Origin: an uncultured Chloroflexia bacterium
GTDB taxonomy: Bacteria > Chloroflexota > Chloroflexia > Thermomicrobiales > UBA6265
Direction: 5' to 3'
DNA length: 64,000 nt
Assembly: GCA_963712055.1 (NCBI GenBank)
Contig: CAVQGN010000003.1
Location: 226,758 to 290,757 of the forward strand
In this document: piece by piece, positions 5,774 through 43,013 of the stretch
Numbering within the stretch: the stretch's first letter is position 1
Layout of the letters: every line of letters begins with the position of its first letter
The notes under the pieces: generated by a model
Told to the model about the DNA's origin: nothing
The model's database searches: none
The model's input: only the letters and a program-made list of their open reading frames with translations
Translations under genes and position numbers: made by a program

Positions 5774-5795
5774 CAGAGAATCCTCCCTTGGTGAC

Positions 5796-6776: not shown

Positions 6777-6860
6777 GATTGGCCATCCCTCTCTGCCTTC
6801 AACGCTGCCGCAGGATAGTACACTGCCAGATCGGAGTGGTGATTCAACGGGGAGCGACCG

Positions 6861-10787: not shown

Positions 10788-10820
10788 GACCGGAGGCGAG
10801 TGATCGCCTCCGGTCTTTCC
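10788..10820 (+). terminator. intercistronic stem-loop after the SBP gene (attenuator/terminator-like)
   Basis: Perfect 12-bp stem GACCGGAGGCGA / TCGCCTCCGGTC with a GTGA loop, followed by TTTCC. Confidence 0.5.
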
Positions 10821-10837
10821 TCTGGTTCACCATCTCT

Positions 10838-11779: not shown

Positions 11780-11790
11780 CGTCCAACCTC

Positions 11791-12681
11791 ATGGCGATGG
11801 AAGCCTCAGTTCCGGCTCCGCAAACCATTGCGGATTTGCCTTCGACCCGGTCGCTCTTTCTCTGGCGATTTCGCAACAACACGAAAGCCATGCTCGGGCT
11901 GATCATCGTGGTCTCCCTTCTGCTTATTGCACTTTTCGCTCCATTCCTGGCTCCCAAGGATCCACTCGATGGCACTCTCTCGGACAGTCTTGCTGGACCG
12001 AGTCGCGAGTATCTCCTCGGCGCCGACAAGAACGGTCGCGACGTGCTCAGTCGGTTGATCTATGGAGCCCGAGTGGCGCTCGGCGGCGCGCTGGCCGTGG
12101 TGTTGATTTCAGAGGTCATCGGGGTGCCGCTCGGCATCTGGGCCGCCTATAAGGGTGGCTGGGTCGACGAAATTGTGATGCGGCTGTTCGACATGATGCT
12201 TGCGTTCCCGCCACTCCTGCTCTCGTTCGCGGTCGTTGCCGCTTTCGGGCCGTCGCTTCGTAATGTCGTAGTTGCTTTGGGAATCCTCTATGTTCCTTTC
12301 ATCGCCCGAGTGGTGAGGAGTGTCGCGCTCGTTCAGAAAGAAATGGCATATACCGAAGCGGCGGAAGCCATGGGATACGGCCAATGGCGAATCATCTTTC
12401 GCCATATCCTGCCGAACTGCATCTCACCGGTGATTGTTGTTTCATCGCTCGACCTTGCCTATGCCATGCTCGATATCGCCGCTCTCTCATTTCTCGGTCT
12501 GGGTGTCCAGCCACCAACACCTGACTGGGGCACGATGCTGAGCGAGGGCCGTGCTGTGCTCCTCACCTCCCCGCACGTGGCTGTGTTTGCCGGGATCGCC
12601 ATCGTGATTGCCGTCGTGGGCTTCAATCTGCTTGGCGATGGGTTGAGCGACGTGCTCGATCCGCGACAACAGGAGAACTAA
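11791..12681 (+). CDS. ABC transporter permease, DppC type
   Basis: ATG 11791 lies just after the upstream stop. TEAAEAMGYGQWRIIFRHILPNCISPVIV. The 5' part of track ORF 11410-12681 overlaps the previous gene. Confidence 0.9.
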   Translation: MAMEASVPAPQTIADLPSTRSLFLWRFRNNTKAMLGLIIVVSLLLIALFAPFLAPKDPLDGTLSDSLAGPSREYLLGADKNGRDVLSRLIYGARVALGGALAVVLISEVIGVPLGIWAAYKGGWVDEIVMRLFDMMLAFPPLLLSFAVVAAFGPSLRNVVVALGILYVPFIARVVRSVALVQKEMAYTEAAEAMGYGQWRIIFRHILPNCISPVIVVSSLDLAYAMLDIAALSFLGLGVQPPTPDWGTMLSEGRAVLLTSPHVAVFAGIAIVIAVVGFNLLGDGLSDVLDPRQQEN

Positions 12682-13712
12682 TGACCGCAGCCACACCCAT
12701 TCTCGAAGTTGACGATCTTCACGTCTATTTCAACACGAGAGTCGGCGACGCCAAAGCGGTCGACGGGGTCACCTTCTCGATCGGACGCGGAGAAACCCTC
12801 GGTCTGGTCGGTGAATCGGGTTCTGGCAAGAGCGTGACCGCTCGGGCAATCATGCGTCTCGTGCCGACGCCACCCGGTCGGTATGCGGGCGGGGAAATCC
12901 GCTTCGATGGCAGCAATCTCCTCGACGTATCCAATGATGCGATGCGCGCGATCAGGGGTGGCCGGATCGGGATGATCTTCCAGGATCCAATGACGTTTCT
13001 CAATCCGGTCTACACCGCCGGTGAGCAGGTTGCCGAAGCGATTCGGCTCCATGGGGGCGCTTCCCGCGGTGAAGCGAAAGCGCAGACCATCGATCTGTTC
13101 AAACTCGTTGGTATTCCTAGTTCAGAAGAACGGTACTCGAGCTATCCCCATCAGCTGTCTGGCGGGATGCGGCAGCGGGTCATGATCGCCATGGCGCTTT
13201 CGTCCAGTCCAGAACTCCTCATCGCCGACGAACCGACCACCGCCCTGGATGTCACTATCCAGGCCCAGATCCTCGATCTCCTCCGTGATCTCCAGGCGAA
13301 ACTCGGTATGAGCATCCTCCTGATCACCCACGACCTGGGTGTGGTGGCGGAGATGTGTGACAACGTCGCCGTCATGTACGCGGGCCAGATCGTCGAACGA
13401 GCCCCAGTTCGAGATCTCTTTAACCGACCTGAACATCCGTATAGCGTTGGACTCCTTGCGGCAGTTCCAGGTTCGAATTACGCCGGTGCTGGTCCGGAAC
13501 CGATCCCTGGTTCACCGCCTGACCTCGTGCGCGTGCCTCCTGGATGCCGGTTCAATCCGCGCTGCTGGATGGCCGAAGAACGTTGCCGCATCGAGGAACC
13601 AGCGTCACTCGAAATCGATTCTGGGCATTGGTCGCGCTGCCATTTTGCAGGAACGGGCAAGGTCTCAGCGGCAAGTCGAGTCGATTCTCTAGCTTCGGGT
13701 TCAACCTCGTGA
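12681..13712 (+). CDS. ABC transporter ATP-binding protein, DppD/OppD type
   Basis: Walker A GESGSGKS, signature LSGGMRQRV, Walker [13 protein letters not shown]. The start overlaps the upstream stop (TAATG). Confidence 0.9.
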
Positions 13713-14752
13713 GCACACCTCTCTCCAGCGAGACCCGGGCATCCGTAGAAACGCCATTGCTTGAAGTGCGGGGCATGGTCAAGCACTTCCCTTTGACCAG
13801 GGGTCTCATCTCGCGGATTCGAGGACGACCAGAAGCGGTCGTGCGTGCTGTTGACGGTATCAGTCTGACCATCATGTCTGGCGAAACCATGGCGCTGGTA
13901 GGCGAAAGCGGTTGCGGTAAATCCACAACCGGGCGGTGTGTACTTTATCTGCAGCCACCAACAGCTGGTGAGGTGGTATTTGATGGCCAGACGATCGATC
14001 CGAACAATGGATCGGCGATGCGCGACCGCCGCAAAGACATGCAGATCATTTTCCAGGACCCGAATTCGTCGCTGAATCCCCGCATGACCGTCGGCCAAAC
14101 GCTGAAAGAAGCGATCGCGTTTCACCACATCGTTCCAGGAAGCGAACGTGATGGCGCGGTTGCTGACCTCCTTGAAACGGTCGGACTATCAGCTCAACAC
14201 GATAGTCGCTATCCGAATGAATTGTCGGGAGGCCAGCGGCAGCGGGTCGGGATCGCGCGGGCATTGGCAGTCAACCCTCGCCTGGTTGTTGCCGACGAAC
14301 CGGTCAGCGCGCTTGATGTTTCCGTGCAGGCGCAGATTCTGCGCTTGCTCGAGAATTTGCGCGAGGACCGCGGGCTTTCCTATCTCTTCATCAGCCACGA
14401 TCTTGGCGTGGTCAAACACATTGCCGACAAAGTCGCGGTGATGTATCTCGGCAAAATCGTCGAACAGGCGGCGACAAGAGACCTGTTCATCAGACCCTTG
14501 CATCCATACACCCGCGCATTGCTTTCAGCGGCACCGGTCGCCAATCCGGACGCTCCGCGGACGCGGTTGCTGCTGCCTGGCGATCCACCCAGTCCAATCA
14601 ATCCCCCCAGCGGCTGCCGTTTCCGCACGCGCTGTGTGTATGCGCAGGACCATTGCGCCGCGGAGGAGCCCATTCTCCGCGACCTCGGAACGAGTCATCT
14701 AGTTGCCTGCCACTTCGCCGAAGCGATCGAATCGGCTCATCCTCCCGTGTGA
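13709..14752 (+). CDS. ABC transporter ATP-binding protein, DppF/OppF type
   Basis: GTG 13709 overlaps the upstream TGA (GTGA). Walker A GESGCGKST, signature LSGGQRQRV, Walker B LVVADEPVSALD. Confidence 0.9.
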   Translation: MSTPLSSETRASVETPLLEVRGMVKHFPLTRGLISRIRGRPEAVVRAVDGISLTIMSGETMALVGESGCGKSTTGRCVLYLQPPTAGEVVFDGQTIDPNNGSAMRDRRKDMQIIFQDPNSSLNPRMTVGQTLKEAIAFHHIVPGSERDGAVADLLETVGLSAQHDSRYPNELSGGQRQRVGIARALAVNPRLVVADEPVSALDVSVQAQILRLLENLREDRGLSYLFISHDLGVVKHIADKVAVMYLGKIVEQAATRDLFIRPLHPYTRALLSAAPVANPDAPRTRLLLPGDPPSPINPPSGCRFRTRCVYAQDHCAAEEPILRDLGTSHLVACHFAEAIESAHPPV

Positions 14753-14888
14753 CAGACGAATCTGTCATGCTTCGGTTGGTCTGCTATCATCGTGGATCAG
14801 TAACGGACTGGCGAGTTCGTGTGGGTGAGTGCTGGCTGGACTCCACCCGCACAATCCTGATCGAACGAAGTCTGGCCAAGGTTTCCGT

Positions 14889-16010
14889 GTGAAAATCGCT
14901 CAGGTTACCCCGTATGACGTGGCCCACCCCGGTGGCGTCGGTCAGCACATCTACCACCTAAAAAAAGAATTCGAAGCGCAAGGCCATGAGGTGTCCGTTA
15001 TGGCACCCAAGGGAAACAAGGGCGGGCTGGAAATCGGACCGGGTTTCTATGGGGTGGGGCGTACAATCGCGATCCCAGCGAACGGCAGTCAGGCTCGCTT
15101 GACATTTGATATTTCACTCTACAACGTGGTGAAGGAGATTTTGAACCGGGAGAATTTTGACGTTGTTCACCTGCATGAACCGTTGACTCCGCTGCTCCCG
15201 TACATGGTTCTGACCAACTCCAACTCAGTCAATGTGGCGACGTTTCATGCCGCCCGCGAAACCAATCACTGGTATTCGGTACTGAAGCCCTACCTCTCGT
15301 TCATGCTCAGCCGACTCGATTCGCGAATATGCGTTTCCAAGCCTGCCGAAGAGGTTGTCAAGCAGTATTTTGGCGGGACCTATGACATTATCCCGAACGG
15401 CATCGACATCACACGGTACTCTCCGGACGTCGAACCCTTTCCATGGGCCTTTGATGGACGTCCTTCAATCCTCTTCGTCGGCCGCTTCAATGAATCCCGA
15501 AAGGGCTTCAAGTATCTGATCCGTGCCTTGCCGATGGTTCAGCAGCAGTTTCCAGACACGCGACTTGTGGTGGTCGGACCGGGCGACCGGGGGAAATTCC
15601 AGGACGTCATCGACCGCTATGGGATCCACGGTGTCGATTTTGTTGGCGCTGTATCACCAGCTGACTTGCCACGATACTACGCAAGTTGCACCGTATTTGC
15701 CTCCCCAGCAACCCACGGCGAAAGCTTTGGATTGGTGCTTCTCGAAGGAATGGCCTCCGGCAAACCAGTTGTTGCCTCGAACATTCCCGGCTACGCCAGC
15801 GTGGTTACGAGCAACGTAGACGGTTTGCTCACCGGGCCGAAAGACCCGGCATCGATAGCCTTGGCAATCGTCCGGCTCCTTTCAGATACCGGTCTGGCTC
15901 AGCGAATTTCAGAACAGGGACGGATCACGTCCCAGCAATACGCCTGGCCCGTCGTTGCCAAACAGGTGCTCGACGTCTATGGCCGATCGATGGCAGGTGT
16001 CTCTCGATGA
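14889..16010 (+). CDS. GT4 glycosyltransferase, PimA-like (phosphatidylinositol mannosyltransferase-like)
   Basis: VKIAQVTPYDVAHPGGVGQHIYHL N-terminus and ESFGLVLLEGMASGKPVVAS (E-x7-E region). GTG 14889 was chosen as start. Confidence 0.8.
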   Translation: MKIAQVTPYDVAHPGGVGQHIYHLKKEFEAQGHEVSVMAPKGNKGGLEIGPGFYGVGRTIAIPANGSQARLTFDISLYNVVKEILNRENFDVVHLHEPLTPLLPYMVLTNSNSVNVATFHAARETNHWYSVLKPYLSFMLSRLDSRICVSKPAEEVVKQYFGGTYDIIPNGIDITRYSPDVEPFPWAFDGRPSILFVGRFNESRKGFKYLIRALPMVQQQFPDTRLVVVGPGDRGKFQDVIDRYGIHGVDFVGAVSPADLPRYYASCTVFASPATHGESFGLVLLEGMASGKPVVASNIPGYASVVTSNVDGLLTGPKDPASIALAIVRLLSDTGLAQRISEQGRITSQQYAWPVVAKQVLDVYGRSMAGVSR

Positions 16011-29645: not shown

Positions 29646-29661
29646 ACCAAGTGCAACCGAT

Positions 29662-29693
29662 CCTCCTCGTCCAACATCGATCGGACGGGGAGG
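29662..29693 (+). terminator. stem-loop downstream of the coxL-like gene
   Basis: CCTCCTCGTCC / GGACGGGGAGG: 11 bp including one G-U pair, with a 10-nt loop and no U-tract. Confidence 0.35.
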
Positions 29694-29712
29694 ACGCTTC
29701 CTGGAGCGCCGT

Positions 29713-29741
29713 ATGAATCCCGGTCCCCGGTTCGGTATACT
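29713..29741 (+). promoter_or_regulatory. weak candidate promoter for the nurA-herA-mre11-rad50 operon
   Basis: ATGAAT - 17 nt - TATACT. Good -10, poor -35. Confidence 0.25.
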
Positions 29742-29782
29742 TCTGCGAGTAGTACACCCGTTCTAGAAGCAGGCTTTACCGC

Positions 29783-30841
29783 GTGACTCGCGCTCCGTTT
29801 GCAGACACTGCTCGACAACTCCACGAAACCCTGACAGCGAATGGCGGCGGATTGTTTGATATTCGCGGCGAACCCCATCTCGAAACTCGCCTGGCGACTT
29901 CCGATAGTGGTGACGAGGATCGGACGTCAGGACCGGGTGTCGAGTCAACGATCACCTGGCTCGAACCGGAATCCCCGCTAGCGCACATCGTCCCAGACTG
30001 GGCACCTCCCTCCCTGGTTCGCTTTTTCCTGGACGGTTCCCAGCGCACGCTGCCGGGCTATTTCGTCGGGTCGATACCCGTTGTCGCGTCGATCGTGGCG
30101 GCAGCAGTACTCGATCGAAATGGACCTGACGGTCCCGCAATCATGCCAGGTATGGTGTCTACTCGCCGGGTTTGGATCGCACCACGCCGGTCGGGTGTGC
30201 AGGCTCTGCAGGATTTCACTCGCACAGCGGAGTCGCTTGGAATCGACGTGGTCGACCCGCTCGATGGCTTGGAGGAGACGGCGTACCAGCAGGCTCTGCA
30301 CGACTATCCACGCCTCGAACAACGCGCATATGCCAAAGCGCGCTCGATGCGTGCCGACCTTGAAACGTCGCTTTTCCACAAATGGCTGGATGAAACCGCT
30401 GGAAGCGATGACTGGATCGTCGTCGATGGCCCGCTCCGGAAAGACGCGGACCGATCGATCGGACTGGTCAAGTCGTACTCGCGCCAATATCTCGATGGCG
30501 CCAACGCGGCGGCGTTGCTCCAACTTCCAGCGGGATCGCGTTCGAGCGCGATCGAGGTTGACGATGGCTGGCGGCAGGGTCGCTACCGGGTCTGGTACCT
30601 GCGCATGCGGACTGCCCAGGGACGCGATCCTCGCCATGGTCTCGTCCGGATCGAAACCGGGTCCGACGTTACGACGCCGGGACCAGATGAAATCTCCCGC
30701 TGGATCCTCAATGAGAGTCGTCCGAGTGCCCGCAGTGACGAACGCTGGGCCACCCTCCTCTATCCGATCCACTATCTCGAACGAATTCTGCATCGATCGC
30801 TGGAGCGGGAAACACGTGGCTGGCCGCGAGGAACAGGCTAG
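29783..30841 (+). CDS. nurA: NurA-like nuclease (RNase H-fold 5'-3' exo/endonuclease family)
   Basis: By-eye NurA landmarks: FFLDGSQ (Asp at 30032-30034), WIVVDGPL (Asp at 30425-30427), VWYLRM..GLVRIETG, and C-terminal WATLLYPIHYLERILH. Ends 10 nt upstream of the HerA-like gene. Confidence 0.6.
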   Translation: MTRAPFADTARQLHETLTANGGGLFDIRGEPHLETRLATSDSGDEDRTSGPGVESTITWLEPESPLAHIVPDWAPPSLVRFFLDGSQRTLPGYFVGSIPVVASIVAAAVLDRNGPDGPAIMPGMVSTRRVWIAPRRSGVQALQDFTRTAESLGIDVVDPLDGLEETAYQQALHDYPRLEQRAYAKARSMRADLETSLFHKWLDETAGSDDWIVVDGPLRKDADRSIGLVKSYSRQYLDGANAAALLQLPAGSRSSAIEVDDGWRQGRYRVWYLRMRTAQGRDPRHGLVRIETGSDVTTPGPDEISRWILNESRPSARSDERWATLLYPIHYLERILHRSLERETRGWPRGTG

Positions 30842-30851
30842 ACTGACAGCC

Positions 30852-33023
30852 ATGGATGATCTGACGATGCCCGACTGGCTTCCCGAGTTTGACGAAAACG
30901 GTTTCGAAACAAGCCTTCAACCCTGGCTGGAGCGGACTGCCGCCTTTGAACCACTGATCGATCGTCAACACGGTCCGATCGGACGGGTTGTTGCCAGTGA
31001 ACGCGAACCATCTGGGTCGCATCAGTTCTTTTTCTGGGCCGGTGAAGATCAGCGCACCCTCGATGTCGGCCATATCATCGTCGCGTTTTCCGAGGATGCT
31101 GCTGTCATCGGTGTGGTCGATGAACCGCGCCGCTATTCAGACATGCGCTCGTTTCTCGACGACTTTTTCGATCGTCACATGGAAAACGCGCTCGAAAGCG
31201 AACCTCCCACCGCTCGTCCGGAAATCCTGGTGTTTCAAGTCAACGTCCTGCGCACGAAACACATCCGACCAGATGTCGATTCCCGCCGCCCGGTGATCGC
31301 TGGTCCGGTCTTTTTCGCCACCAACGAAGCAATCGACTTCGCGCTCGGACGAGATGGCTTCGGCGGCGTGCCGATCCCGGCTCTCCTCCATGTCAACGGC
31401 AACGCCCAGCGTGACGAGCACGGACAGCCACGCCGCGACGCGAACGGTAACGAGATCTTCCAGCGGTCCGCAATCTGGCTTGACGAAGACTATCTCCTCG
31501 GCCCTGAAGCCGGGCACGCGAACTGGACGGGTCAATCTGGTCTGGCAACCAAAACCAGTCACGCGCTTTTTCTGACCAGCGCCGTTTTCCAGCAACTCGA
31601 AAAAGAAGACAAGTCGGTCGCAGCATTGATGTTCAATGTCAAAGGACCAGACCTGATCTGGCTCGACAAACCAGCGACCCCGGATGACGATCTGGAGTCA
31701 GCGTTTGCGCGAGCGAATGTCAGCGGTCTGCCCGATCTCGATATCGAGGCATACGCCGCTCTCGGGCTCGAGATCAAACCGTTCGACAACTTCCGCCTCT
31801 TTGCGCCGTTCAAACCGGGCCAGGCACCGACTGGAACCTGGAACGATCCGGTTGTGTCGATGGCGAATGGCGACTACCGCTCGAACCTGAACACGCTGCG
31901 CGACAATCCCGCCCATCGCACCACCGTGTTTCCGATTCTCTGGGGGCTGCGGACCTTGCTGGCCAATCCCTATCAATTGTTCGACTTCAACGATCTCGAT
32001 GACAAACTTTGGGCGCTCATCGCCGAACTACGAGATCAAATCGGGGTCAAATCGCTGATCGAACTCCAGAAGACGCTCACGGAAGCCCTCACTGAACTCA
32101 CCGAAACGGGCGGCAGTGAATGGCGAAATCACCACAAGTTCACGATCCAGAAAGCGCTCAACCGCTTCGGCGGACTACCGACCAAGTTCGCCGGGTTGCT
32201 GACCGATGGCGAGGTGGACTACGGCAGACTGCCGAAAGTCGACGAACCCTTCAGCAACCAGGAAGTACGAGTCGTCGATATCGCAGGATGCAGCAGCAAT
32301 GTTCAGGAACTGATCGTTTCCAATGTCATCCAGCGCGTCTGGAGACTGGCGGAAAATCAGGAACTCGGGGTCAGCAAACTGATTGTTTTCGTCGACGAAT
32401 TGAACAAACATGCTCCCGCCGGTGGGCAAGGAGGTCTGCGCGACACACTCGTCGATATCGCCGCTCGTGGTCGCCATCTCAATGTTGTGCTCTTCGGTGC
32501 GCAGCAGTTTCGGTCCAAAGTCGATGGCGAGATTCTCGGCAATTGCGGCACCTCACTTTATGGTCGCGTCGGTGATGAAGAAATTATCAACAGTTCCTAT
32601 CGCTCGCTGAGTGAAACAACCAAGGCCGAACTCCTCGGATTACCCAAAGGGAGGTTGCTGGTGCGCCACGCACATTTCCGTGCGCCCCTCTTTGGGCTCT
32701 TCCCGAGACCACCGGTTATCCCCGGCATGGATGGACAACGGGTCTTCAACAACACCACTGCCGGAGAAGCGAATGCCTTCGGCCATCCGGGTGATCCGGT
32801 CTATTTCCTCCTCCGTGAACTCGGTGACACGAGTGGGGTGTCCAAGGGGATCGTCCGCACCGAAACCGAAGGGCTTACCCCGGAGGAAATCGAACAGATC
32901 TGCAACAAAGTACGTCTGTCCTGGCGAAGTAAGGTCGGCACATCCGCTGCCCGCCGGATTTCTCCCTGGTCGATGTGCCAGAACGCGATCAGAACCGTCA
33001 AAATGACGTCGACCCGGATCTGA
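30852..33023 (+). CDS. herA: HerA-like (DUF87/FtsK-HerA superfamily) hexameric ATPase/helicase homologue, 723 aa
   Basis: N-terminal barrel-like segment IGRVVASEREPSGSHQFFFWAGEDQRTLDVGHIIVAF..VIGVVDE. P-loop position HANWTGQSGLATKTS, Walker B KLIVFVDELNKHAP, and ARGRHLNVVLFGAQQ. The track ORF 5' part (30081-30851) overlaps nurA out of frame and is discounted. Confidence 0.7.
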   Translation: MDDLTMPDWLPEFDENGFETSLQPWLERTAAFEPLIDRQHGPIGRVVASEREPSGSHQFFFWAGEDQRTLDVGHIIVAFSEDAAVIGVVDEPRRYSDMRSFLDDFFDRHMENALESEPPTARPEILVFQVNVLRTKHIRPDVDSRRPVIAGPVFFATNEAIDFALGRDGFGGVPIPALLHVNGNAQRDEHGQPRRDANGNEIFQRSAIWLDEDYLLGPEAGHANWTGQSGLATKTSHALFLTSAVFQQLEKEDKSVAALMFNVKGPDLIWLDKPATPDDDLESAFARANVSGLPDLDIEAYAALGLEIKPFDNFRLFAPFKPGQAPTGTWNDPVVSMANGDYRSNLNTLRDNPAHRTTVFPILWGLRTLLANPYQLFDFNDLDDKLWALIAELRDQIGVKSLIELQKTLTEALTELTETGGSEWRNHHKFTIQKALNRFGGLPTKFAGLLTDGEVDYGRLPKVDEPFSNQEVRVVDIAGCSSNVQELIVSNVIQRVWRLAENQELGVSKLIVFVDELNKHAPAGGQGGLRDTLVDIAARGRHLNVVLFGAQQFRSKVDGEILGNCGTSLYGRVGDEEIINSSYRSLSETTKAELLGLPKGRLLVRHAHFRAPLFGLFPRPPVIPGMDGQRVFNNTTAGEANAFGHPGDPVYFLLRELGDTSGVSKGIVRTETEGLTPEEIEQICNKVRLSWRSKVGTSAARRISPWSMCQNAIRTVKMTSTRI

Positions 33024-33048
33024 TTCAGTAACAAGGACTCGACTCCCT

Positions 33049-34248
33049 GTGGCATCTCTCCGCATCGCTCATCTGGCCGATACGCATCTCGGTTATCGCG
33101 CGCTCAGCAAAACCGATCCGCTGACTGGCCGCAACCAACGCTCCGAAGATATCGAGCGAGCGTTCGTGCGCACGATCGATGACCTGCTCGAACGGGACAT
33201 CGATCTCGTGATCCATGCTGGCGATCTCTTTCAGCACCCGCGTCCGGTTTTTCCGGCGATCAGTCTAGCGATCCGGCAGTTTCGACGCTTGGAAGCGGCC
33301 GGCATTCCGACAGTGGTGATCGGTGGCAACCACGATACCCCGCGGATGCGTGCGAGTGGTTCGGTGTTTGGACTGCTTGCGGTCGCGCTGCCGGATATCA
33401 CGTTTGCCGGTGGCTACGAGATGATCCCCCACCCCTTACCAGAACTCGACATCACCCTGATGCTGATGCCACATGGAAGTCTGACCAATCCGGAACCACC
33501 GATACCCCTGCCAGTTGGCAGCGGACGCAACATTCTCGTCACACACGGTCTCGCTCCAAGTGTCGATCTCGACGCCGTTCGGCGGGAACCGGGTGAAGAA
33601 GCGCTCTCCGACGAAATGCTCGACGCTGGGTTCGACTACATTGCGCTCGGTCACTATCACGCTTTCCATCAACCTGCTGGCGTCGCCAACGCGTGGTATT
33701 CCGGCGCCACCGAACGAATGGGATGGGGTGATCAGCAGAACGTACCCGGGTATGCGTTGGTCGAACTCGGTGATGAACCGAAAAAGCGAACCGTCACCCA
33801 TGTCCCGCTGCCGGTCCGACCGATGGAGCAAATCGACATTCCAGCTCATCTCTCGGTCGATGATGACCCTGAAGCAATCGCTGCCTTGGCTATCGAGCGG
33901 ATAGCCGCGCTTTCCGAACCGGACGCCATGGTCCGGGTGATGCTTGGCTCGGTATCGCGCACGACCAAACGACGAGCCGAATCGTTGATTCAGGAAGCCG
34001 GTCGCGATCTCGTCTGGTCGATTCAGGTCGTTTCGCGCTCAGATCAATTCGCGGGCTTTGCCAACAGCCGTGCCGATCTGCCGAGTATTGATCTCCTCGA
34101 TCAATTCTCGGCGTTCATCGACCAGCGTCTTGCCAGCGGCGATTACGACCAGGCGTTTGCCGACGCGTTTCGCGAGACTGGCACGGCCGAACTGAAACAT
34201 GCGATCGAACAAGCGAACGAGGCGATCGGCGAGGAAGTCGCGCCATGA
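33049..34248 (+). CDS. mre11: Mre11/SbcD-family metallophosphoesterase nuclease
   Basis: All phosphoesterase motifs are present: HLADTHLG, HAGDLF, GGNHD, LVTHG, LGHYH. Confidence 0.85.
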   Translation: MASLRIAHLADTHLGYRALSKTDPLTGRNQRSEDIERAFVRTIDDLLERDIDLVIHAGDLFQHPRPVFPAISLAIRQFRRLEAAGIPTVVIGGNHDTPRMRASGSVFGLLAVALPDITFAGGYEMIPHPLPELDITLMLMPHGSLTNPEPPIPLPVGSGRNILVTHGLAPSVDLDAVRREPGEEALSDEMLDAGFDYIALGHYHAFHQPAGVANAWYSGATERMGWGDQQNVPGYALVELGDEPKKRTVTHVPLPVRPMEQIDIPAHLSVDDDPEAIAALAIERIAALSEPDAMVRVMLGSVSRTTKRRAESLIQEAGRDLVWSIQVVSRSDQFAGFANSRADLPSIDLLDQFSAFIDQRLASGDYDQAFADAFRETGTAELKHAIEQANEAIGEEVAP

Positions 34249-37088
34249 ACCTGGTCGAGGTCGAGCTCACGAACTATCGCCAGTTCAGTGGAACGCATAT
34301 CTTTTCCCCCGGGGAGCAAGCCATGGTGGCGATCCTGGGTGAAAACGGCGCCGGAAAAACGACCCTGTTCGAATCGATCGAGTGGTGTCTCTTCGCTCCG
34401 AATGCGATCAAACGCGATGACATCCGCAACCGCGTCTATCCCGGCAATCCTCGAGTAAGGGTCGTGCTCGAGAATCCCACCACCGGCGAACGATTCGAAA
34501 TCGAAAGGGAGTCGAAGAAAACCACAACCGAGGCCGCGGTCTATCGCGCCGACAACCCCACGGCGCCACTCGTCCAGGGAACGCGCCCGGTGTCGGAATA
34601 TGTTGCCCGCCAACTCCTGGGTATGAGTCACCAGGCCTTTTCGGCCACATTTCTCACTCGCCAGAAAGAACTCGGGTTTTTCGGATCGCTCAAGCCGACC
34701 GATCGGCGACGCGAAGTCGGCAAACTCCTCGGGCTGGAAACGATTCGGACGGCCCAGGAAGCGATCAGTAAGCGACGGCTGGAAAAACAGTCAGAAGCCA
34801 GAGCGAAAACGAGTCGGGTCGAGGAAGTCGCGGCGGAACGCGATTTCGAGAAAGAGTCGACGGCGATCGACAACCGGATCGCAACCGCCTCGCTGGAGGT
34901 CGGACTGCAGCAAACGGCTCTCGCCAGCGCAGATCTCCGTCTGAACAACGCCCGTGCTGCTGTCACTCGGGCCTCGCAACGGCGGGAGGAGCATTCCAAT
35001 CTCCAGCTCGTCCAAACCAAGATCGAAGGAGAACTGCGCAGGGTCAAATCGTCGATCGAGTCGCTCGAAAAGCAGCAGCATGATCTGGATCGAGACGCCA
35101 TCCGGTTGGTTGACCTTCGTCCTATTGCGGCGACTGAATCCGATCTGATCAAGCGGATGGAAGACCATAGCCTCGCGCTCGACCAACGGCGACAGCGAAT
35201 CGCTTTGACCGAGCAGATCACCAGACTCGATGACGATCTCAAACAGGTCGCGGAGAATGTCGAACAGATCGAGGTCCAGTTTTGGGACGGTGAACAGACC
35301 GGCCTGCGGATTGCCGAGTCTCCACCCAGCGAATCGACGGTCCGCCTGCAAGCGCTGTTGAAACGTGCTGTCGAAGCAGACCCCGGCGGTGCGGAAGCAA
35401 CCCTGAACCATCTGACCGCCTGTATCGACGCCGAGAAAGGGCTGACCGCCGCCCAGACCACACTCAAACGCTATGAAGACGTGATCGCGGGAATTCATCG
35501 TGAGATCGAACGTCTCCTCGAGCATGGTGATCCTGCTGATGCCATTTCCGCACTGGAGCAGCAGCTTCAGGAGATCCGTGAACAGCGCGCGGCTGACGCA
35601 GCCACGAACAAGACGGCCACAACCGATCGTGATCGCTTGACCACGATGCGCCAACGGCTTCTCGAGGAAGCGGACGACACCGAATCGTGTCCCACCTGCA
35701 ATCGCCCCTTCGGGCCTGGCGAACGTGATGGCTATCTGACCACCCTCGGCAATCAGATTCGCGAGCTCAGCGCGACCATCACCACGACGTCCGCGACCAT
35801 CGAGTCCTGCCGAACGAAAGAGAAAACGCTCGATACTCAGCTCCAGATACTGGCGGAGCGCAGGACCCAGCTCGACAAGAATCGCGTGCGTCTGACCGAG
35901 AGCAAGCGACCGATGGAGGAAGCAACCGCAGCGGTCGCAGAGGCGGAAGCGATCTTGGCAGACGCTCTGCAATCAGCCGGACGCGGTTCTTTTCCGTCCG
36001 ATGCAGACATCGAGGCTGCCCGCCAAGCCCTGGATCGGGTGAGGCATCGCGCCGGGCAATCTGATCGCATCCACGATCTCCTCCAACAGCAGGAACGCTG
36101 CTCCAACAGTCGTGAAATGGCCACCAGGCAGCTGACGGCCCTCGGTCCGGACACCTATGATCAGAAGTCGCACAAGGACGACGAACGACAACTGCTACGA
36201 GTCCGCGAGGCGGTTACGCAAATCCGCGAAATCGAGGCACGCCTGCTCCAGCGTCCAGCGTTGGAAACCTCACTAATCGATGCACGAACAGAAGCAGAGA
36301 AGCTTTCGGAATCCCTTGCTGGCAGCAACTCCGCGCTGCAGGCATTCGGTTTCGATCCTGATGAGCATCCACTCGCCAGCGCAGAGGAAGCGACTGCCCT
36401 GAGATCGAGACAGGATGCATCAGATCGTCTGAATTCGATCACCCGCGAGCTCGACGCCGCTCAGCGGGATCAAGCTCAGATCAAAAAAGACCAGGATCTG
36501 TTTGAGCGCTATCGAGTCGAGTCAGAAGCAGCCCAAGCCGAGGCCGAGCGCCTGAGCCGGATGTACACAGAGTTCAATTTGTTCGACAAGTTCGTCGCTC
36601 AGTCGATCGCGCCGGCGCTCGCCGATCTGACGGGTCAGATGGTCGCCGAAGTTACCGAAGGCAAATACGACCGGGTCGAGTTCGATGACGATTTTGGCGT
36701 GCGGGTCTTTGACGGTAACGACGATAGCTTCCCGCTCGAGCAGTTTTCCGGCGGTGAACGCGATGTCGTCGCGCTTTGTGCTCGCCTGGCGCTGTCGCAA
36801 CTGATCGGCGGCAGTGGCCATCATCCGCTCCAGTTCGTGGTGCTCGATGAGGTATTTGGATCGCTCGATCAGGTCCGCCGTCAGAATCTGATGGAAACAC
36901 TCCAACGACTGGTCGGAGATGGTGGTCCGTTCCGGCAGTTGTTCGCCATCAGTCATGTCGACGACATTCAGAACAGCCCGGCGTTCGACGAAGCCTGGAA
37001 AATCACCGAAGGGGCTGATGGTATCAGTGTGCTCGAACGGCTGTCCAGCCATCCCACTCTGGCTGGCGGTCAAACAACGATCGACTAA
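34245..37088 (+). CDS. rad50: Rad50/SbcC-family SMC-like ATPase with zinc hook
   Basis: Walker A GENGAGKTT, Q-loop TRQKE, central CPTC zinc hook within long coiled-coil sequence, signature FSGGERDV, Walker B FVVLDEVFGSLD, H-loop ISHV. ATGA overlap with mre11. Confidence 0.9.
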   Translation: MNLVEVELTNYRQFSGTHIFSPGEQAMVAILGENGAGKTTLFESIEWCLFAPNAIKRDDIRNRVYPGNPRVRVVLENPTTGERFEIERESKKTTTEAAVYRADNPTAPLVQGTRPVSEYVARQLLGMSHQAFSATFLTRQKELGFFGSLKPTDRRREVGKLLGLETIRTAQEAISKRRLEKQSEARAKTSRVEEVAAERDFEKESTAIDNRIATASLEVGLQQTALASADLRLNNARAAVTRASQRREEHSNLQLVQTKIEGELRRVKSSIESLEKQQHDLDRDAIRLVDLRPIAATESDLIKRMEDHSLALDQRRQRIALTEQITRLDDDLKQVAENVEQIEVQFWDGEQTGLRIAESPPSESTVRLQALLKRAVEADPGGAEATLNHLTACIDAEKGLTAAQTTLKRYEDVIAGIHREIERLLEHGDPADAISALEQQLQEIREQRAADAATNKTATTDRDRLTTMRQRLLEEADDTESCPTCNRPFGPGERDGYLTTLGNQIRELSATITTTSATIESCRTKEKTLDTQLQILAERRTQLDKNRVRLTESKRPMEEATAAVAEAEAILADALQSAGRGSFPSDADIEAARQALDRVRHRAGQSDRIHDLLQQQERCSNSREMATRQLTALGPDTYDQKSHKDDERQLLRVREAVTQIREIEARLLQRPALETSLIDARTEAEKLSESLAGSNSALQAFGFDPDEHPLASAEEATALRSRQDASDRLNSITRELDAAQRDQAQIKKDQDLFERYRVESEAAQAEAERLSRMYTEFNLFDKFVAQSIAPALADLTGQMVAEVTEGKYDRVEFDDDFGVRVFDGNDDSFPLEQFSGGERDVVALCARLALSQLIGGSGHHPLQFVVLDEVFGSLDQVRRQNLMETLQRLVGDGGPFRQLFAISHVDDIQNSPAFDEAWKITEGADGISVLERLSSHPTLAGGQTTID

Positions 37089-37098
37089 ACCAGCCAAA

Positions 37099-37139
37099 GA
37101 AAAAACGGGTTTCCGGGCGTTTGCACACCCGGAAACCCG
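37099..37139 (-). terminator. rho-independent terminator (also closes the rad50 operon region)
   Basis: Perfect 12-bp stem CGGGTTTCCGGG / CCCGGAAACCCG. The A-run at 37099-37105 gives a U-tract on the minus strand after the PRC-barrel gene. Confidence 0.6.
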
Positions 37140-37160
37140 CTTCAGCCACTCCCCGTCCCG

Positions 37161-37829
37161 CTACTTCTTGGAAGCTTCGACTTCTGCTTTGGTCACCGAC
37201 AAGCGGACACGCTCGTGAGTTACACCGGCAATCCACTCCGCTGGAATGTGGACATCGTGATGGAAGATCCGGCCCTGCTCGATGATCAGGCCGGTTATGT
37301 TCCCCTCGTCGTCGAACAGAACGTCGTCTACTTGCCCAATGTTCTTTTCATCCAGGGTTTCGACGTGCGTATCGTTGCTAATCGTGACATCAGAATCAGT
37401 CAGCGGTCCAATCGTGCGAGTATTCATCTCGCCAATGATCGCTGGTTGAAACAATGATCCCGATCCAGTGCTGGCCATCCCGCCGGAACTTGGACCGACA
37501 TGCATCCAGGTGTTCGAACCGGAGACGTCGACCATTCCGCCGCGCATACCGGCGGCCGTCGAATCGCCAAACTGCACAAATTCCTGCGTCACAAAACCTG
37601 GGAGAGATTTGGCTTCTGCCTCGCTCAACTTCAATGTGACCACTTCTTCGGTCATCGACTCGATGTATTCGATGTCGACAACCCGTCCGCTGTCGAAGAT
37701 TCCTTCATCAGCGACTACTCCGTCGAGGCGTCGTCTAGTGGTATCGAAGATAAGATGATGGACTTTGCCGATCGATTTGCCATCGCTGGTGCGAACATCC
37801 GCGCCGATTGCTGCCTGCCTGAACGCCAT
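37161..37829 (-). CDS. tandem PRC-barrel domain protein
   Basis: Two PRC-barrel-like units (VRTSDGKSIGKVHHLIFDTTRRRLDGVVA.. and VETLDEKNIGQVDDVLFDDEGNITGLIIEQG). Confidence 0.7.
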   Translation of the reverse strand: MAFRQAAIGADVRTSDGKSIGKVHHLIFDTTRRRLDGVVADEGIFDSGRVVDIEYIESMTEEVVTLKLSEAEAKSLPGFVTQEFVQFGDSTAAGMRGGMVDVSGSNTWMHVGPSSGGMASTGSGSLFQPAIIGEMNTRTIGPLTDSDVTISNDTHVETLDEKNIGQVDDVLFDDEGNITGLIIEQGRIFHHDVHIPAEWIAGVTHERVRLSVTKAEVEASKK

Positions 37830-39425: not shown

Positions 39426-40067
39426 CTACACCTGTGGTGCCGGCAATTGCTCCCATTTCGACTCCGGCAACATGGCTTCGGTCAGTTTCGACATTTGCGA
39501 ACCGATGGCCAACGCAGCGACAACGATCCAGATCACTATCCAGAACCAACTTTCCTGGATCGCCGCCCAAGCCGTGCCGTACTCGAGGTTTTCGCGATCG
39601 ATTCGATTGAGGACCAGCATCGCTCCAGCGACTGCCCAGGCCGCACCAGCAAACGCAGTGATGACCAAAGCCCAATAGACCGGGAGGTCGAGAACGACGG
39701 TCAGCATACCCATCACAATTGCGCCGATGATCGCCGCTGCCGCTATCACCCATTCAGTGTTGACATTGAACACATTCATCAATCCAGCGCCAACGGTCGC
39801 TCCCAGAAATGCACCTCCGAAAATCACAGCGATGTACCAGAACATGTAGGAAGTCACCGCCAGGATGATCCCTCCGACAACTCCGGTGACGATTCCCAGC
39901 GTGGTCGTGAGGAAACCATCATCGAAGAAGTGATGAATCACTTCGACACCGAGCGACATACCGACCACAAATCCAAGCACTGGCAGCGCGATGCCAAACA
40001 CACGCAGCCCGGCAAAAGCAACAACAAGTCCAATCGCCACCATGACTACGCCAACAACAATATCCAT
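39426..40067 (-). CDS. integral membrane protein (about 6-7 TM helices, Gly/Ala/Val-rich)
   Basis: Continuous hydrophobic helices (MDIVVGVVMVAIGLVVAFAGLRVFGIALPVLGFVVG...). No catalytic motif recognised. Confidence 0.6.
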   Translation of the reverse strand: MDIVVGVVMVAIGLVVAFAGLRVFGIALPVLGFVVGMSLGVEVIHHFFDDGFLTTTLGIVTGVVGGIILAVTSYMFWYIAVIFGGAFLGATVGAGLMNVFNVNTEWVIAAAAIIGAIVMGMLTVVLDLPVYWALVITAFAGAAWAVAGAMLVLNRIDRENLEYGTAWAAIQESWFWIVIWIVVAALAIGSQMSKLTEAMLPESKWEQLPAPQV

Positions 40068-40215
40068 CGGACCACTCCTTCTTCCTCATCATCGCCCAAT
40101 TGTCAAAATCGAGCTTGGCGGTCATTGACGCTTAGACCGATCCACGGTGAACCACGCGTCATTCCACAGCGTACGTATGCACAATAAACATACTGATCGT
40201 CAAGGTGACCTGCTG

Positions 40216-41096: not shown

Positions 41097-43013
41097 ATGC
41101 AAGCGCCGAACCCCGCAGCGTTACCAATTGAGTCGATTCCGATCCCGCTTCCCGAGGTTGTCCCCGGATCTCGCTTTGTTTCTACGGCCGTCGATCTATC
41201 CGATGGCTGGGGCAGACGGCGATTGCTCGCTGTCATCGCTTCGCAAGGAGCCTCAGCTGCTGTTCTCGAAGTCGCCTCGCTCACAGACCGGATCGAACGT
41301 CTGTTTCTCACCAAGGCGACTTCAAGCGCCGAAAACACTCTCGACTCACTCGTCACCAGCATTCCGGCGGAGATCAGTTTCGCGATTGCCCTGATCGAAG
41401 GCGCCGACGCAATCCTGGCGGCGCGTCCCGTCGCGCAGGGATTGCTGGACCAGGATGGCGAGCGAATCGTATTTCCCTTCGCTGCTGATGGAACTGACGG
41501 CGTCAGCATCTTCAGAGCGGAACTGCTGGAAGGGGACATCCTCGCCCTCGCGGTCGCGGATCCGGAGCAGGCTGTCGCTGATCTGCAACTGGTCGAATCC
41601 GCAGCGGATCTGGACGCAGCAATTGGCCCGACGGGCTCAGCTATCTGGTTCGAATTGACGCTTCCAGAGTATTCGCTCGGTCTGGACGAAGAGTTTGAAC
41701 CGATCGTGACACAGTCGGCGACAATCGTCCAACCGGCTCCGGCAACCTGGGATCTGGTCGCGCCATCGGTCGGCGGATATCGCGCTAAACCACTTGGAGC
41801 CGATGCATTGCGACGGTACGGACAGAGCTCGCGCAGCCGCACACCGGGCGCCCTTCACTCCCGGATGCCGCGTGGACGACCACCTTTCAAAGTAATGATT
41901 GGTGCGCTCCTGGCGGCGACATTGCTAATTGGATTCGGCTACTGGCTGTTTGCCAATCGTCCAAATGACTCAATCCCGGTGACTGCTCAAGTGGAACAAC
42001 AATCGGCGGCATTGTTATCGGCGATCGAAGCCGACAACATCGATGCGATCGATACCCTGATTCCTGGTGCAGAACAGACACTGTCGCTTGCTGAACGATC
42101 TGGACTGACCACAGACGAGGTAACAACGCTGCGATTCACTCTGCTCGAGGGGAAGGACCTCGTAAACGGCGCCGATCGTCTCGGGTCCGTCGAGAAAATC
42201 GGCAGCCTCCCGGCAGAATTTGATGACCGCAAAGCGTCACTTGTTCTCTTGAACAAAGACCTGTTGGTGTTGGGCGAAACACTTTATCGCGTCGATCCAG
42301 CCAATCGTGAACTCTGGGTTTGGGCATCCGCTGCCAGTGAAATCGATTCGGGAACCGCCCTGATTGCCTCGAGCGACGGCACCACGGTCGCGATTGCGTC
42401 AGATCAGGTGGCGTTTTTTCAGAAAGCGGGAGACACGACCTTCTCGCAGTACTACGGTCAATGGCCGGAAGGGTTCGATCCGGCGGAGTCATTCGCCTCT
42501 GTTTTTTCGGGTCGGCTCTATCTGCTTGATCCGTCGCTCGGCGAGATATGGGTTACTGATCCTGAAACCGCAGAATCTCGACGCTGGCTTCTTTCGGATC
42601 AGGACCCACTCGGAGAGGACAGTGTGGGCATGGTGGTCGACGGCGGGGTGCACGTCGTGTACAAGTCCGGAGAGCTTGCCTCGTTGTACGAGGGCTCCCG
42701 CTATGTCACCGAATCAATCAGTGACAACTTCAGTTTCGAAGACCCGACCGCGATGACCTATGGCCCGCTAACCAAATCGTTCTATATTGCGGGCACCAAG
42801 AATGGCCAACCAGCATTGTTGAAGATTGTCGCGGAGACAGGCGCAGGTTCGATTTATCTGCTCGGTCCAGATAGCGAAGGATTCACGGAGAGCGATGCGT
42901 CCGCGGCATTCGCGGAGCTGCAGAGTCTTGTCGTTGACGAAACCACGGGAAATGTCTACTGGGCCGGAAATGGCGCGCTCTGGCAAGCGCCACTGCCCGA
43001 GGAAGAGGAATAA
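41097..43013 (+). CDS. hypothetical membrane-anchored protein (cytoplasmic ~260 aa, one TM helix, ~350-aa extracytoplasmic repeat-like domain)
   Basis: Long ORF in consistent coding frame with a TM segment VMIGALLAATLLIGFGYWLFA. No family recognised. Confidence 0.6.
   Translation: MQAPNPAALPIESIPIPLPEVVPGSRFVSTAVDLSDGWGRRRLLAVIASQGASAAVLEVASLTDRIERLFLTKATSSAENTLDSLVTSIPAEISFAIALIEGADAILAARPVAQGLLDQDGERIVFPFAADGTDGVSIFRAELLEGDILALAVADPEQAVADLQLVESAADLDAAIGPTGSAIWFELTLPEYSLGLDEEFEPIVTQSATIVQPAPATWDLVAPSVGGYRAKPLGADALRRYGQSSRSRTPGALHSRMPRGRPPFKVMIGALLAATLLIGFGYWLFANRPNDSIPVTAQVEQQSAALLSAIEADNIDAIDTLIPGAEQTLSLAERSGLTTDEVTTLRFTLLEGKDLVNGADRLGSVEKIGSLPAEFDDRKASLVLLNKDLLVLGETLYRVDPANRELWVWASAASEIDSGTALIASSDGTTVAIASDQVAFFQKAGDTTFSQYYGQWPEGFDPAESFASVFSGRLYLLDPSLGEIWVTDPETAESRRWLLSDQDPLGEDSVGMVVDGGVHVVYKSGELASLYEGSRYVTESISDNFSFEDPTAMTYGPLTKSFYIAGTKNGQPALLKIVAETGAGSIYLLGPDSEGFTESDASAAFAELQSLVVDETTGNVYWAGNGALWQAPLPEEEE

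Follow-up and report, generated by a model that had tools for sequence, protein, structure and literature searches.

This study analyzed a stretch of 64,000 nucleotides (nt) from the genome of an uncultured Chloroflexia bacterium of the Thermomicrobiales (contig CAVQGN010000003.1, positions 226,758 to 290,757), hereafter referred to as the window, and focused on four adjacent genes at 29783-37088, namely nurA, herA, mre11, and rad50. We consider it probable, at a rough probability of 0.72, that these genes form a chromosomal and vertically inherited operon encoding a complete machine for the processing of DNA double-strand break (DSB) ends, and that LexA probably represses this operon until DNA damage induces it. 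Direct support for this reading was provided by the identities of the four genes, the conservation of their established or putative catalytic residues, the architecture of the locus, the conservation of the operon in two phyla, and the conservation of an operator-like palindrome upstream of nurA.

A first-pass annotation of the window had described four co-directional open reading frames (ORFs) with gaps of 10 nt and 25 nt and an ATGA overlap at their junctions, and the coordinates and all three junctions were reproduced in this study. The four genes, with the lengths of their products in amino acids (aa), were as follows.

29783..30841, plus strand: nurA, 352 aa, GTG start, ORF read from the sequence
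30852..33023, plus strand: herA, 723 aa, ATG start, ORF; alternative start GTG 30816, 735 aa
33049..34248, plus strand: mre11/sbcD, 399 aa, GTG start, ORF; Metallophos domain and five motifs
34245..37088, plus strand: rad50/sbcC, 947 aa, ATG start, ORF; ABC head and central CPTC hook

The 10-nt gap between nurA and herA was read directly in the sequence. The 25-nt gap between herA and mre11 is accompanied by a Shine-Dalgarno-like element, AAGGA, approximately 10 nt before the GTG codon of mre11, and the stop codon of mre11 and the start codon of rad50 share a 4-nt ATGA overlap. The window scan called neither a terminator nor a promoter between herA and mre11. Inside the operon, terminator-like matches (14 versus 7.8 ± 3.6 in shuffled sequences) and promoter-like matches (3 versus 1.7 ± 1.3) exhibited no convincing excess. 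The GC content of the operon was flat at 0.58-0.60 and equaled that of the rest of the window. We infer that 29783-37088 is a genuine four-gene operon whose genes would be co-transcribed.

Identities of the four gene products

When searched alone against Pfam, NCBIfam, PADLOC, and the PDB, the NurA protein yielded no match, and its identification required a family profile built from 31 homologs and a structure model. The family profile matched Deinococcus radiodurans NurA (7f6d_H, 4.1e-8) and Thermotoga maritima TM1739 (1zup, 6.6e-5) in the PDB, and 6 of the 31 family members reached the Pfam NurA family PF09376 (best, 2.3e-6). The AlphaFold2 model had a predicted local distance difference test (pLDDT) score of 89.6 and a predicted template modeling score of 0.89. 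A Foldseek search of the PDB with this model returned three matches at E <= 1e-3, namely 7f6d_G and the two TM1739 chains (1zup_A/B), and no archaeal NurA structure was among the matches at this threshold. The alignment with 7f6d_G had an E value of 4.8e-11, a probability of 1.0, and a template modeling score of 0.48-0.50.

The motifs LDGS, VVDGPL, and LLYP were located at residues 83, 213, and 325 of NurA, respectively, and the residues D84 (of LDGS), D158, E194, and D215 (of VVDG) were invariant in the 31 homologs. D215 paired with D204 of D. radiodurans NurA (DrNurA) in the hidden Markov model alignment, and these invariant acidic residues are putatively catalytic. The search identified 361 NurA homologs; the named ones were from Thermomicrobiales or Chloroflexota genomes, and nearly all were labeled 'hypothetical protein.' D. 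radiodurans NurA and TM1739 are 'bacterial-type' NurA proteins by the definition of PMC9960219. The profile and the predicted fold, which both match DrNurA and TM1739, support the identification of gene 1 as a bacterial-type NurA nuclease, in agreement with the NurA-like reading of the first-pass annotation.

The HerA protein contains GQSGLATKTS at 227, VDELNK at 514, and ARGRH at 538. In a phmmer search of the PDB, HerA matched D. radiodurans HerA (DrHerA; 7f6d_B) at 1.8e-32, and the remaining marginal matches were all HerA proteins. K234 in the Walker A motif GQSGLATKTS aligned with K175 of DrHerA (GISGVATKTS), and D515/E516 in the Walker B motif VDELNK aligned with D487/E488. Mutations of these DrHerA residues abolish ATPase activity and resection (PMC9960219). 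R539-G540-R541, the RGR motif after Walker B, was invariant in 27 homologs, and its arginine is a putative arginine finger. The Foldseek ranking placed DrHerA first (3e-21), followed by the archaeal HerA proteins of Thermococcus kodakarensis and Sulfolobus solfataricus (6e-14 to 3e-12), and, below these, the defense HerA proteins (Sir2-HerA, DUF4297-HerA, and TdpAB; 1e-8 to 1e-10). Neither FtsK nor VirB4 was found among the top 50 Foldseek matches, all of which were HerA chains or the HerA-like TdpAB complex. These findings support gene 2 encoding a bacterial-type HerA, a predicted hexameric DNA translocase whose hexamer and translocation are assigned by homology. The HerA-like assignment and the intact Walker B motif reported earlier were both confirmed.

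The HerA protein matched no Pfam family at E <= 1, and neither the HAS-barrel model (PF09378) nor DUF87 (PF01935) was matched. Sub-threshold Pfam matches were found in distant HerA relatives only (HAS-barrel at 2.9e-4 in L054; DUF87 at 4.5e-3 in L053 and 3.9e-4 in L063). The Pfam HAS-barrel and DUF87 models cover the bacterial-type HerA clade poorly, and the fold comparison spans the full length of the protein. In the public annotation, the HerA ORF (P0121, 735 aa) begins at GTG 30816 and thereby shares 26 nt with nurA, and the N-terminal 20-30 or so residues are unconserved among homologs; the herA start is ambiguous between ATG 30852 and GTG 30816.

Mre11 carries the five phosphoesterase motifs (DTH at 11, GDLF at 58, GNHD at 93, VTHG at 164, and GHYH at 201) and matched Pfam Metallophos above the cut-off (1.3e-14). 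Its best PDB match was T. maritima Mre11 (3qg5_C, 4e-16), followed by the Mre11 proteins of Methanocaldococcus jannaschii and Pyrococcus furiosus; Escherichia coli SbcD reached only 8e-5, and all matches were Mre11 or SbcD. Rad50 carries GENGAGKT at 32, CPTC at 482 (of 947), SGGE at 835, LDE at 867, and ISH at 902. It matched the Pfam families SMC_N, AAA_23, and SbcC_Walker_B above their cut-offs, with Rad50_zn_hook at 18.7 bits against a cut-off of 24.3, and it aligned end to end with the NCBIfam Rad50 model PRK03918 (2.9e-35). The central CxxC was present in all 28 full-length Rad50 orthologs. The protein accordingly shows the split ABC head, the long coiled coil, and the central zinc hook of the Rad50/SbcC family. 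The best PDB match of Rad50 was M. jannaschii Rad50 (3e-22), and E. coli SbcC was absent from its list of PDB matches. The five motifs, the Metallophos domain, the ABC motifs, and the CPTC hook bear out the assignment of genes 3 and 4 to Mre11/SbcD and Rad50/SbcC; all motifs quoted in the first-pass annotation for the four proteins were located in their translations.

The NCBIfam models that scored best for Mre11 and Rad50 were archaeal, and the best PDB match of Rad50 was also archaeal. In addition, the literature assumes an archaeal origin of bacterial herA-nurA (PMC5448004, PMC12977600). We accordingly weighed whether the cluster was imported recently from an archaeon carrying herA-mre11-rad50-nurA, an explanation that we regard as highly improbable. 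The only significant fold and profile matches of NurA were bacterial (D. radiodurans and T. maritima), HerA was closer to DrHerA (3e-21, 22-24% identity) than to T. kodakarensis HerA (6e-14, 14-15%), and the best PDB match of Mre11 was the T. maritima protein. All NCBIfam scores were far under the equivalog cut-offs: Mre11 reached 85.6 bits against 550 for Mre11_Halo and 60.1 against 77.65 for TIGR00619 (sbcd), and Rad50 reached none of the curated equivalog thresholds. By these scores, Mre11 and Rad50 are superfamily members outside every curated NCBIfam ortholog group. The gene order is unlike that of Sulfolobus, the GC content is uniform, and mobility genes are lacking at the locus. Moreover, the operon is conserved across the order and in a second phylum, and any transfer would therefore be ancient. 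The label 'archaeal-type' applied in the first-pass annotation had to be abandoned because NurA and HerA are of the bacterial type.

Distribution and linkage of the operon

The distribution of the operon was investigated through a genome scan that included one genome per species. The NurA patterns of the scan were tailored to this clade, and its reach therefore did not extend to other phyla, among them Deinococcota with Oceanithermus. The scan yielded 55 loci, comprising 51 titled as Chloroflexota lineages (Thermomicrobiales, Thermomicrobia, Sphaerobacteraceae/Sphaerobacterales, Chloroflexia, or Chloroflexota), two titled 'bacterium' only, one from Armatimonadota, and one from Zixibacteria. 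According to the record titles, the hosts were mostly from soil or desert metagenomes and not from hyperthermophilic settings. The results revealed that mre11 directly followed herA in 42 of the 46 loci with enough downstream sequence, and that rad50 was the next gene after mre11 in all 37 evaluable loci, with the order unchanged. The exceptions to the herA-mre11 adjacency were L002, L003, L053 (Armatimonadota), and L054 (Zixibacteria).

HerA contexts from Armatimonadota were also recovered through a protein search. All five that were looked up showed a nurA-like gene, herA, a Metallophos gene, and an SMC/SbcC gene in this order. The gene upstream of herA matched the NurA profile at 1e-47 to 1e-54, and all four proteins were 25-37% identical to those of the window. 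In L053, a sixth Armatimonadota locus identified through the genome scan, no mre11 or rad50 was found within approximately 7 kb after herA. These findings indicate that the operon is the rule in Thermomicrobiales and is common in at least two phyla.

The first-pass annotation had implied that the four-gene linkage is rare or new in bacteria. This claim did not hold: the linkage has been reported for Oceanithermus profundus (PMC5448004), and it was observed in the scan loci, in the Armatimonadota contexts, and on plasmids. In line with the accompanying statement, nurA-herA is not adjacent to mre11-rad50 in Deinococcus and Thermus (PMC5448004). Bacterial herA-nurA is still described as a Deinococcus-Thermus feature (PMC12977600), and in the literature searched, no paper linking NurA to Thermomicrobia or Armatimonadota was found. 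The public labels of these NurA and HerA proteins are 'hypothetical' or 'ATP-binding protein.'

Several loci exhibited variations around the four genes. In a Thermomicrobiales locus (L019, 6108-7729), approximately 1.6 kb of additional sequence lies between herA and mre11, and the corresponding gaps in L001, L022, L037, L015, and L011 are 250-400 nt. In L002, a gene for a pyrroloquinoline quinone beta-propeller protein follows herA (13484-15091), and in L053, an alpha/beta-hydrolase-like ORF of 368 aa lies between nurA and herA (10794-11900). Three Armatimonadota loci (L058, 4534-5340; L059, 4859-5623; L060, 5997-6761) contain a SIR2-family gene of approximately 254-268 aa upstream of nurA, at a distance of one to three genes and in variable orientation. 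This gene probably encodes a CobB-type deacetylase, and its closeness to herA is worth recording beside the Sir2-HerA defense systems.

The linkage data bear on whether the locus comprises two independent pairs side by side, that is, a nurA-herA unit and an ordinary hairpin- and end-cleaving sbcD-sbcC unit with no mechanistic hand-off between them. This explanation, which we consider unlikely, draws on the occurrence of nurA-herA without adjacent mre11-rad50 in L002, L003, L053, and L054 and in Deinococcus and Thermus (PMC5448004), as well as on the herA-mre11 gaps of 200-1600 nt in several loci. It is opposed by the 25-nt gap in the window with no terminator or promoter call, and by the persistence of adjacency and order across two phyla at 25-37% identity in all four proteins. 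Highly divergent plasmid versions likewise contain all four genes, in one case permuted; because the genes recur together across such deep divergence, even when permuted, selection for the linkage is suggested. Furthermore, archaeal Mre11 reportedly interacts physically with HerA (PMC2288612).

The LexA-type palindrome, mobile relatives, and flanks

We then considered the region directly upstream of nurA, which contains the following two elements.

29736..29741, plus strand: TATACT, a -10-like hexamer and putative promoter element, 10 nt upstream of the palindrome
29750..29765, no strand: LexA/SOS-box-like palindrome TAGTACACCCGTTCTA, core GTAC-N4-GTTC at 29752-29763

The core of the window palindrome has one mismatch to GAAC-N4-GTTC (GTAC for GAAC), and 19 nt separate its end from the start codon of nurA. 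GAAC-N4-GTTC is the LexA box of Firmicutes and Actinobacteria, with variants in Chloroflexi (PMC4951493). Allowing up to one mismatch, we found this motif in the 200 nt preceding nurA at 48 of 53 loci, compared with approximately 5 expected, and the exact motif in 24 of 53, compared with approximately 0.6 expected; the background, calculated from the same 805 kb, was 0.10 (one mismatch or fewer) and 0.012 (exact) sites per 200 nt. The sites were mostly located 24-90 nt before the nurA start codon. The right half-site GTTC was intact in 46 of the 48 sites, and the left half-site varied among GAAC, GTAC, and GCAC; L005 and L006 have the same GTAC variant as the window at an equal distance from nurA. 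The simple scan of the window called no consensus sigma-70 promoter upstream of nurA. Across loci, 8-mers related to TATACT (AGTATAGC, GCGCTATA, and CGCTATAC) were some of those recurring most often ahead of nurA.

Across the 55 loci and the window, a single further exact site was intergenic; it lies in L029, approximately 80 nt before a Y-family polymerase gene (impB/mucB/samB). Y-family polymerase genes are classical SOS genes. This site, the palindrome AAAGAACATATGTTCTAAT at 6589-6600, lies between the polymerase gene and a divergent FtsK gene, approximately 3 kb upstream of the nurA operon. The L029 site is consistent with the palindrome being a LexA operator in these bacteria. Because the position of the box upstream of nurA is conserved, the motif argues that the nurA operon probably belongs to the SOS regulon in Thermomicrobiales, and LexA would bind the box. 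A LexA-type box, if functional, favors SOS-inducible repair over phage defense.

A role in defense, in which the HerA-nuclease pair and the SMC-like ATPase/nuclease would destroy invading linear DNA in the manner of Sir2-HerA, DUF4297-HerA, Lamassu, or RecBCD-like defense, had been raised in the first-pass annotation as an alternative to repair. In PADLOC, Rad50 matched LmuB (5e-37) and mad3 (9e-23), and HerA matched mad8 (8e-11) and HerA (0.0037); defense HerA proteins are among the significant fold neighbors of HerA, and an antiviral role has been proposed for archaeal HerA-NurA (PMC12977600). Nevertheless, the PADLOC matches reflect generic P-loop/SMC similarity, and Sir2, DUF4297, LmuA/LmuC, and MADS methyltransferase/kinase genes are absent from the neighborhood. 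The repair-type DrHerA was closest in both sequence and fold, ahead of every defense HerA. Unlike patchy defense islands, the operon occurs in nearly every sampled species of the order and partly keeps its housekeeping flanks, and a putative SOS-type operator is conserved upstream. The LexA-type box and the order-wide chromosomal conservation make a defensive role less likely, and we assign it a small chance of being correct. MADS and Lamassu, the specific systems suggested by the mad3, mad8, and LmuB matches, were rejected because the similarity is that of generic ATPases and the partner genes are missing.

Mobile relatives of the operon also bear on the defense explanation. HerA relatives were detected on 6 of 72,556 plasmids, all at 35% identity or less, and in 2 of 50,697 phage records. 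Three of the plasmid matches were divergent four-gene modules from three phyla, each adjoining a gene for an ImmA/IrrE-family (Peptidase_M78) metallopeptidase, with HerA approximately 25-35% identical to that of the window.

L061, 5092-13149: Candidatus Chlorohelix allophototropha plasmid NZ_CP128402.1, IrrE-nurA-herA-sbcD-SMC; TIR, Ser/Thr-kinase, and transposase genes nearby
L063, 3975-11957: Aulosira laxa plasmid AP018313.1, IrrE-nurA-herA-sbcD-SMC
L064, 3742-13048: Streptomyces sp. BB1-1-1 linear plasmid NZ_CP134205.1, herA-sbcD-SMC-nurA, which is the Sulfolobus order; TIGR02680/TIGR02678/DUF2397 beside it

The plasmid modules may represent a mobile, IrrE-regulated variant for repair or defense. 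Their location beside TIR, kinase, transposase, or TIGR02680-family genes speaks for defense, as does the nurA-herA pair of a Marinitoga virus. Against this, the HerA of the plasmid versions shares only approximately 25-35% identity and belongs to a different clade. Close relatives are essentially absent from the plasmids and phage records searched, which favors the reading of a chromosomal repair operon. Marinitoga camini virus 1 (L062, KP836355.1), which is temperate and has a Thermotogota host, carries nurA and herA side by side at 4933-7641. Its NurA matched the NurA profile at 9e-20 and is annotated as 'single-stranded exonuclease associated with Rad50/Mre11 complex,' and the pair is followed or preceded, at a distance of a few genes, by a gene for a LexA-like repressor.

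Several observations weigh against a LexA-controlled operon for DSB-end processing. The window box alone is not significant, with one mismatch and approximately 0.1 such sites expected per 200 nt, and the Armatimonadota operons showed no LexA-type box in their upstream regions. In L002 and L003, two close relatives with NurA 48-49% identical, mre11-rad50 was not found within 7.7 kb downstream. The coupling of nurA-herA to mre11-rad50 is not obligatory, as the pairs are separate in L002, L003, Deinococcus, and Thermus; in the lineages of L002 and L003, the linkage was either broken or never made. The HerA structure model had moderate confidence only (pLDDT 66.8). Finally, a structural study of T. 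kodakarensis HerA-NurA from 2026 questioned the resection role and suggested the degradation of foreign DNA (PMC12977600).

The remaining features of the locus concern its flanks and its 3' end.

Before nurA: molybdopterin subunit of the xanthine-dehydrogenase type (upstream flank)
37102..37143, minus strand: hairpin with 19 pairs and a U-tract on the minus strand, from the terminator scan
37161..37829, minus strand: PRC-barrel/DUF2171 gene, convergent with the operon
Neighbors in the window: genes for ribosomal protein L25/TL5, the PRC-barrel protein, a mannosyltransferase, a formyltransferase, and pyridoxal phosphate enzymes
Further neighbors in the window: genes for orotidine monophosphate decarboxylase, inosine monophosphate dehydrogenase, and peptide ATP-binding cassette transporters

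No integrase or transposase was present in the genes flanking the operon within the window, which are housekeeping or metabolic. Flank synteny was partly kept in related loci, with the xanthine-dehydrogenase-type gene upstream and the mannosyltransferase gene downstream. Together with the flat GC content, these results sustain the earlier description of a resident module with ordinary flanks rather than a recent island. Elsewhere in the window, a gene for a 955-aa Ski2-like helicase (53312-56179, minus strand; DEAD, Helicase_C, and DSHCT) resembles HelY/Mtr4-type RNA helicases. Downstream of the operon, two plus-strand ORFs, of 638 aa (41097-43013) and 246 aa (39447-40187), had no Pfam match at E <= 0.001.

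The strong hairpin that the first-pass annotation had placed at the end of the operon is real, with a folding energy of -41.2 kcal/mol (z = -5.25) on the minus strand and -26.3 kcal/mol (z = -3.24) on the plus strand. Its reading as the operon's own terminator was not supported: on the plus strand, it is preceded by an A-tract and has no U-tract. Because the U-tract lies on the minus strand, the hairpin would, by the canonical rule, be the intrinsic terminator of the convergent gene at 37161-37829. Acting bidirectionally, it may in addition end the transcript of the operon. At the other end of the operon, an imperfect GC-rich inverted repeat, CCTCCTCGTCC...GGACGGGGAGG, was noted by eye at 29661-29695, directly after the stop codon of the upstream molybdopterin-enzyme gene. 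This repeat may be the terminator of the upstream gene, which would thereby be separated from the nurA promoter region.

Proposed mechanism and comparison with known systems

By analogy, the complexes known from D. radiodurans and from archaea (PMC9960219, PMC12977600) suggest the following mechanism. DNA damage would lead to the cleavage of LexA and the de-repression of the operon. Mre11-Rad50 would recognize DNA ends, tether them through the Rad50 hooks, and clean or unblock them. The HerA hexamer would then thread the duplex through its pore into a NurA dimer docked on the HAS-barrel face, and NurA would digest the 5' strand, or both strands, to yield a 3' tail as the substrate for RecA. 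As a member of its family, NurA would be a Mn2+-dependent 5'-3' exonuclease/endonuclease. What we infer in this scheme is that the proteins form complexes and resect DNA ends, that LexA binds the palindrome, and that the four genes are transcribed together.

The hand-off of ends from Mre11-Rad50 to HerA-NurA and the function of HerA-NurA as a resection machine are debated in the field. The presence of the four genes in one operon under a putative SOS-type operator would provide independent comparative support for a role in the response to DNA damage, and the operon supplies non-hyperthermophilic proteins for reconstituting the hand-off. A broader proposal, which we advance only tentatively and regard as doubtful, is that the LexA-controlled operon is the primary DSB resection pathway in Thermomicrobiales, and probably in Armatimonadota, replacing or dominating RecBCD/AddAB/AdnAB, and that it is an ancient bacterial unit with IrrE-linked plasmid relatives rather than an archaeal loan. 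If this proposal is true, whole bacterial lineages run the 'archaeal' route from Mre11-Rad50 to HerA-NurA.

The four-gene linkage in bacteria was already known from O. profundus (PMC5448004). The new findings are how widely the module occurs (in Thermomicrobiales, in Armatimonadota, and as IrrE-linked plasmid variants), the annotation gap for NurA and HerA, and the conserved, putative LexA-type operator. The distribution corrects the simplified textbook view in which linkage of all four genes is an archaeal trait and NurA-HerA in bacteria is restricted to Deinococcus-Thermus. The annotation gap is that these NurA and HerA proteins mostly escape the Pfam NurA and HerA models and carry uninformative labels.

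Among the known systems, SbcCD of E. coli and Bacillus has the same pair of a nuclease and an SMC-like ATPase, encoded by overlapping genes that are probably translationally coupled. The similarity of E. coli SbcCD to genes 3 and 4 of the window is weak, as the PDB searches revealed, and canonical sbcDC operons are not known to contain nurA-herA. The HerA defense systems (Sir2-HerA/Nezha, DUF4297-HerA, and TdpAB) share the HerA fold and the pairing of a motor with a nuclease or an effector, but they rank below the bacterial and archaeal repair HerA proteins, and the Sir2 and DUF4297 effectors are absent at the window locus. Unlike in these systems, the partner in the window is NurA, and the operon belongs to the conserved core genome and carries an SOS-type box.

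The archaeal operon of Sulfolobus, Pyrococcus, and Thermococcus comprises the same four families with the same presumed division of labor and the Rad50 CxxC hook. Its order, reportedly described by Constantinesco et al. in 2004, is herA-mre11-rad50-nurA, whereas that of the window is nurA-herA-mre11-rad50; the difference from Sulfolobus pointed out in the first-pass annotation was confirmed, with nurA placed first in the window. For the window Mre11 and Rad50, models of the archaeal and Thermotoga type gave the best scores, ahead of E. coli SbcCD. Bacterial-type NurA-HerA has a distinct dimerization mode and ionic, not hydrophobic, contacts between NurA and HerA (PMC9960219).

The closest solved relative of both NurA and HerA, in sequence and in fold, is the D. 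radiodurans NurA-HerA complex (PDB 7F6D, 7WRW/7WRX). The two systems share the unusual Walker A sequence G-x-S-G-x-A-T-K-T-S, the Walker B sequence (L/V)DELNK(Y/H)AP, and the location of nurA immediately upstream of herA, with identities in the Foldseek alignments of approximately 18% for NurA and 22-24% for HerA. The window HerA is approximately 100 aa longer than DrHerA, with a C-terminal extension at approximately 625-723 and an unconserved N-terminus. The nurA-herA genes of D. radiodurans are unlinked to sbcCD/mre11-rad50, whereas those of the window are linked. The damage response of Deinococcus is the PprI/DdrO system, in contrast to the LexA-type box on the window operon. D. radiodurans is described as lacking Mre11-Rad50 (PMC12977600); its NurA-HerA performs ATP-dependent end resection, and mutants were assayed for survival after DNA damage (PMC9960219).

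The nearest published precedent in gene order is O. profundus, in which homologs of SbcD and SbcC lie directly downstream of herA (hepA) after nurA (Blesa et al. 2017, PMC5448004). The likeness, which is based on the published description of the gene order, covers all four functions and their arrangement as in the window. O. profundus is a thermophile of the Thermales (Deinococcota), and its cluster is mentioned in one paragraph without a regulatory element (PMC5448004). In our reading, the window operon, which is conserved across a whole order and in a second phylum, is a poorly annotated repair module with a known bacterial counterpart and is not an archaeal import.

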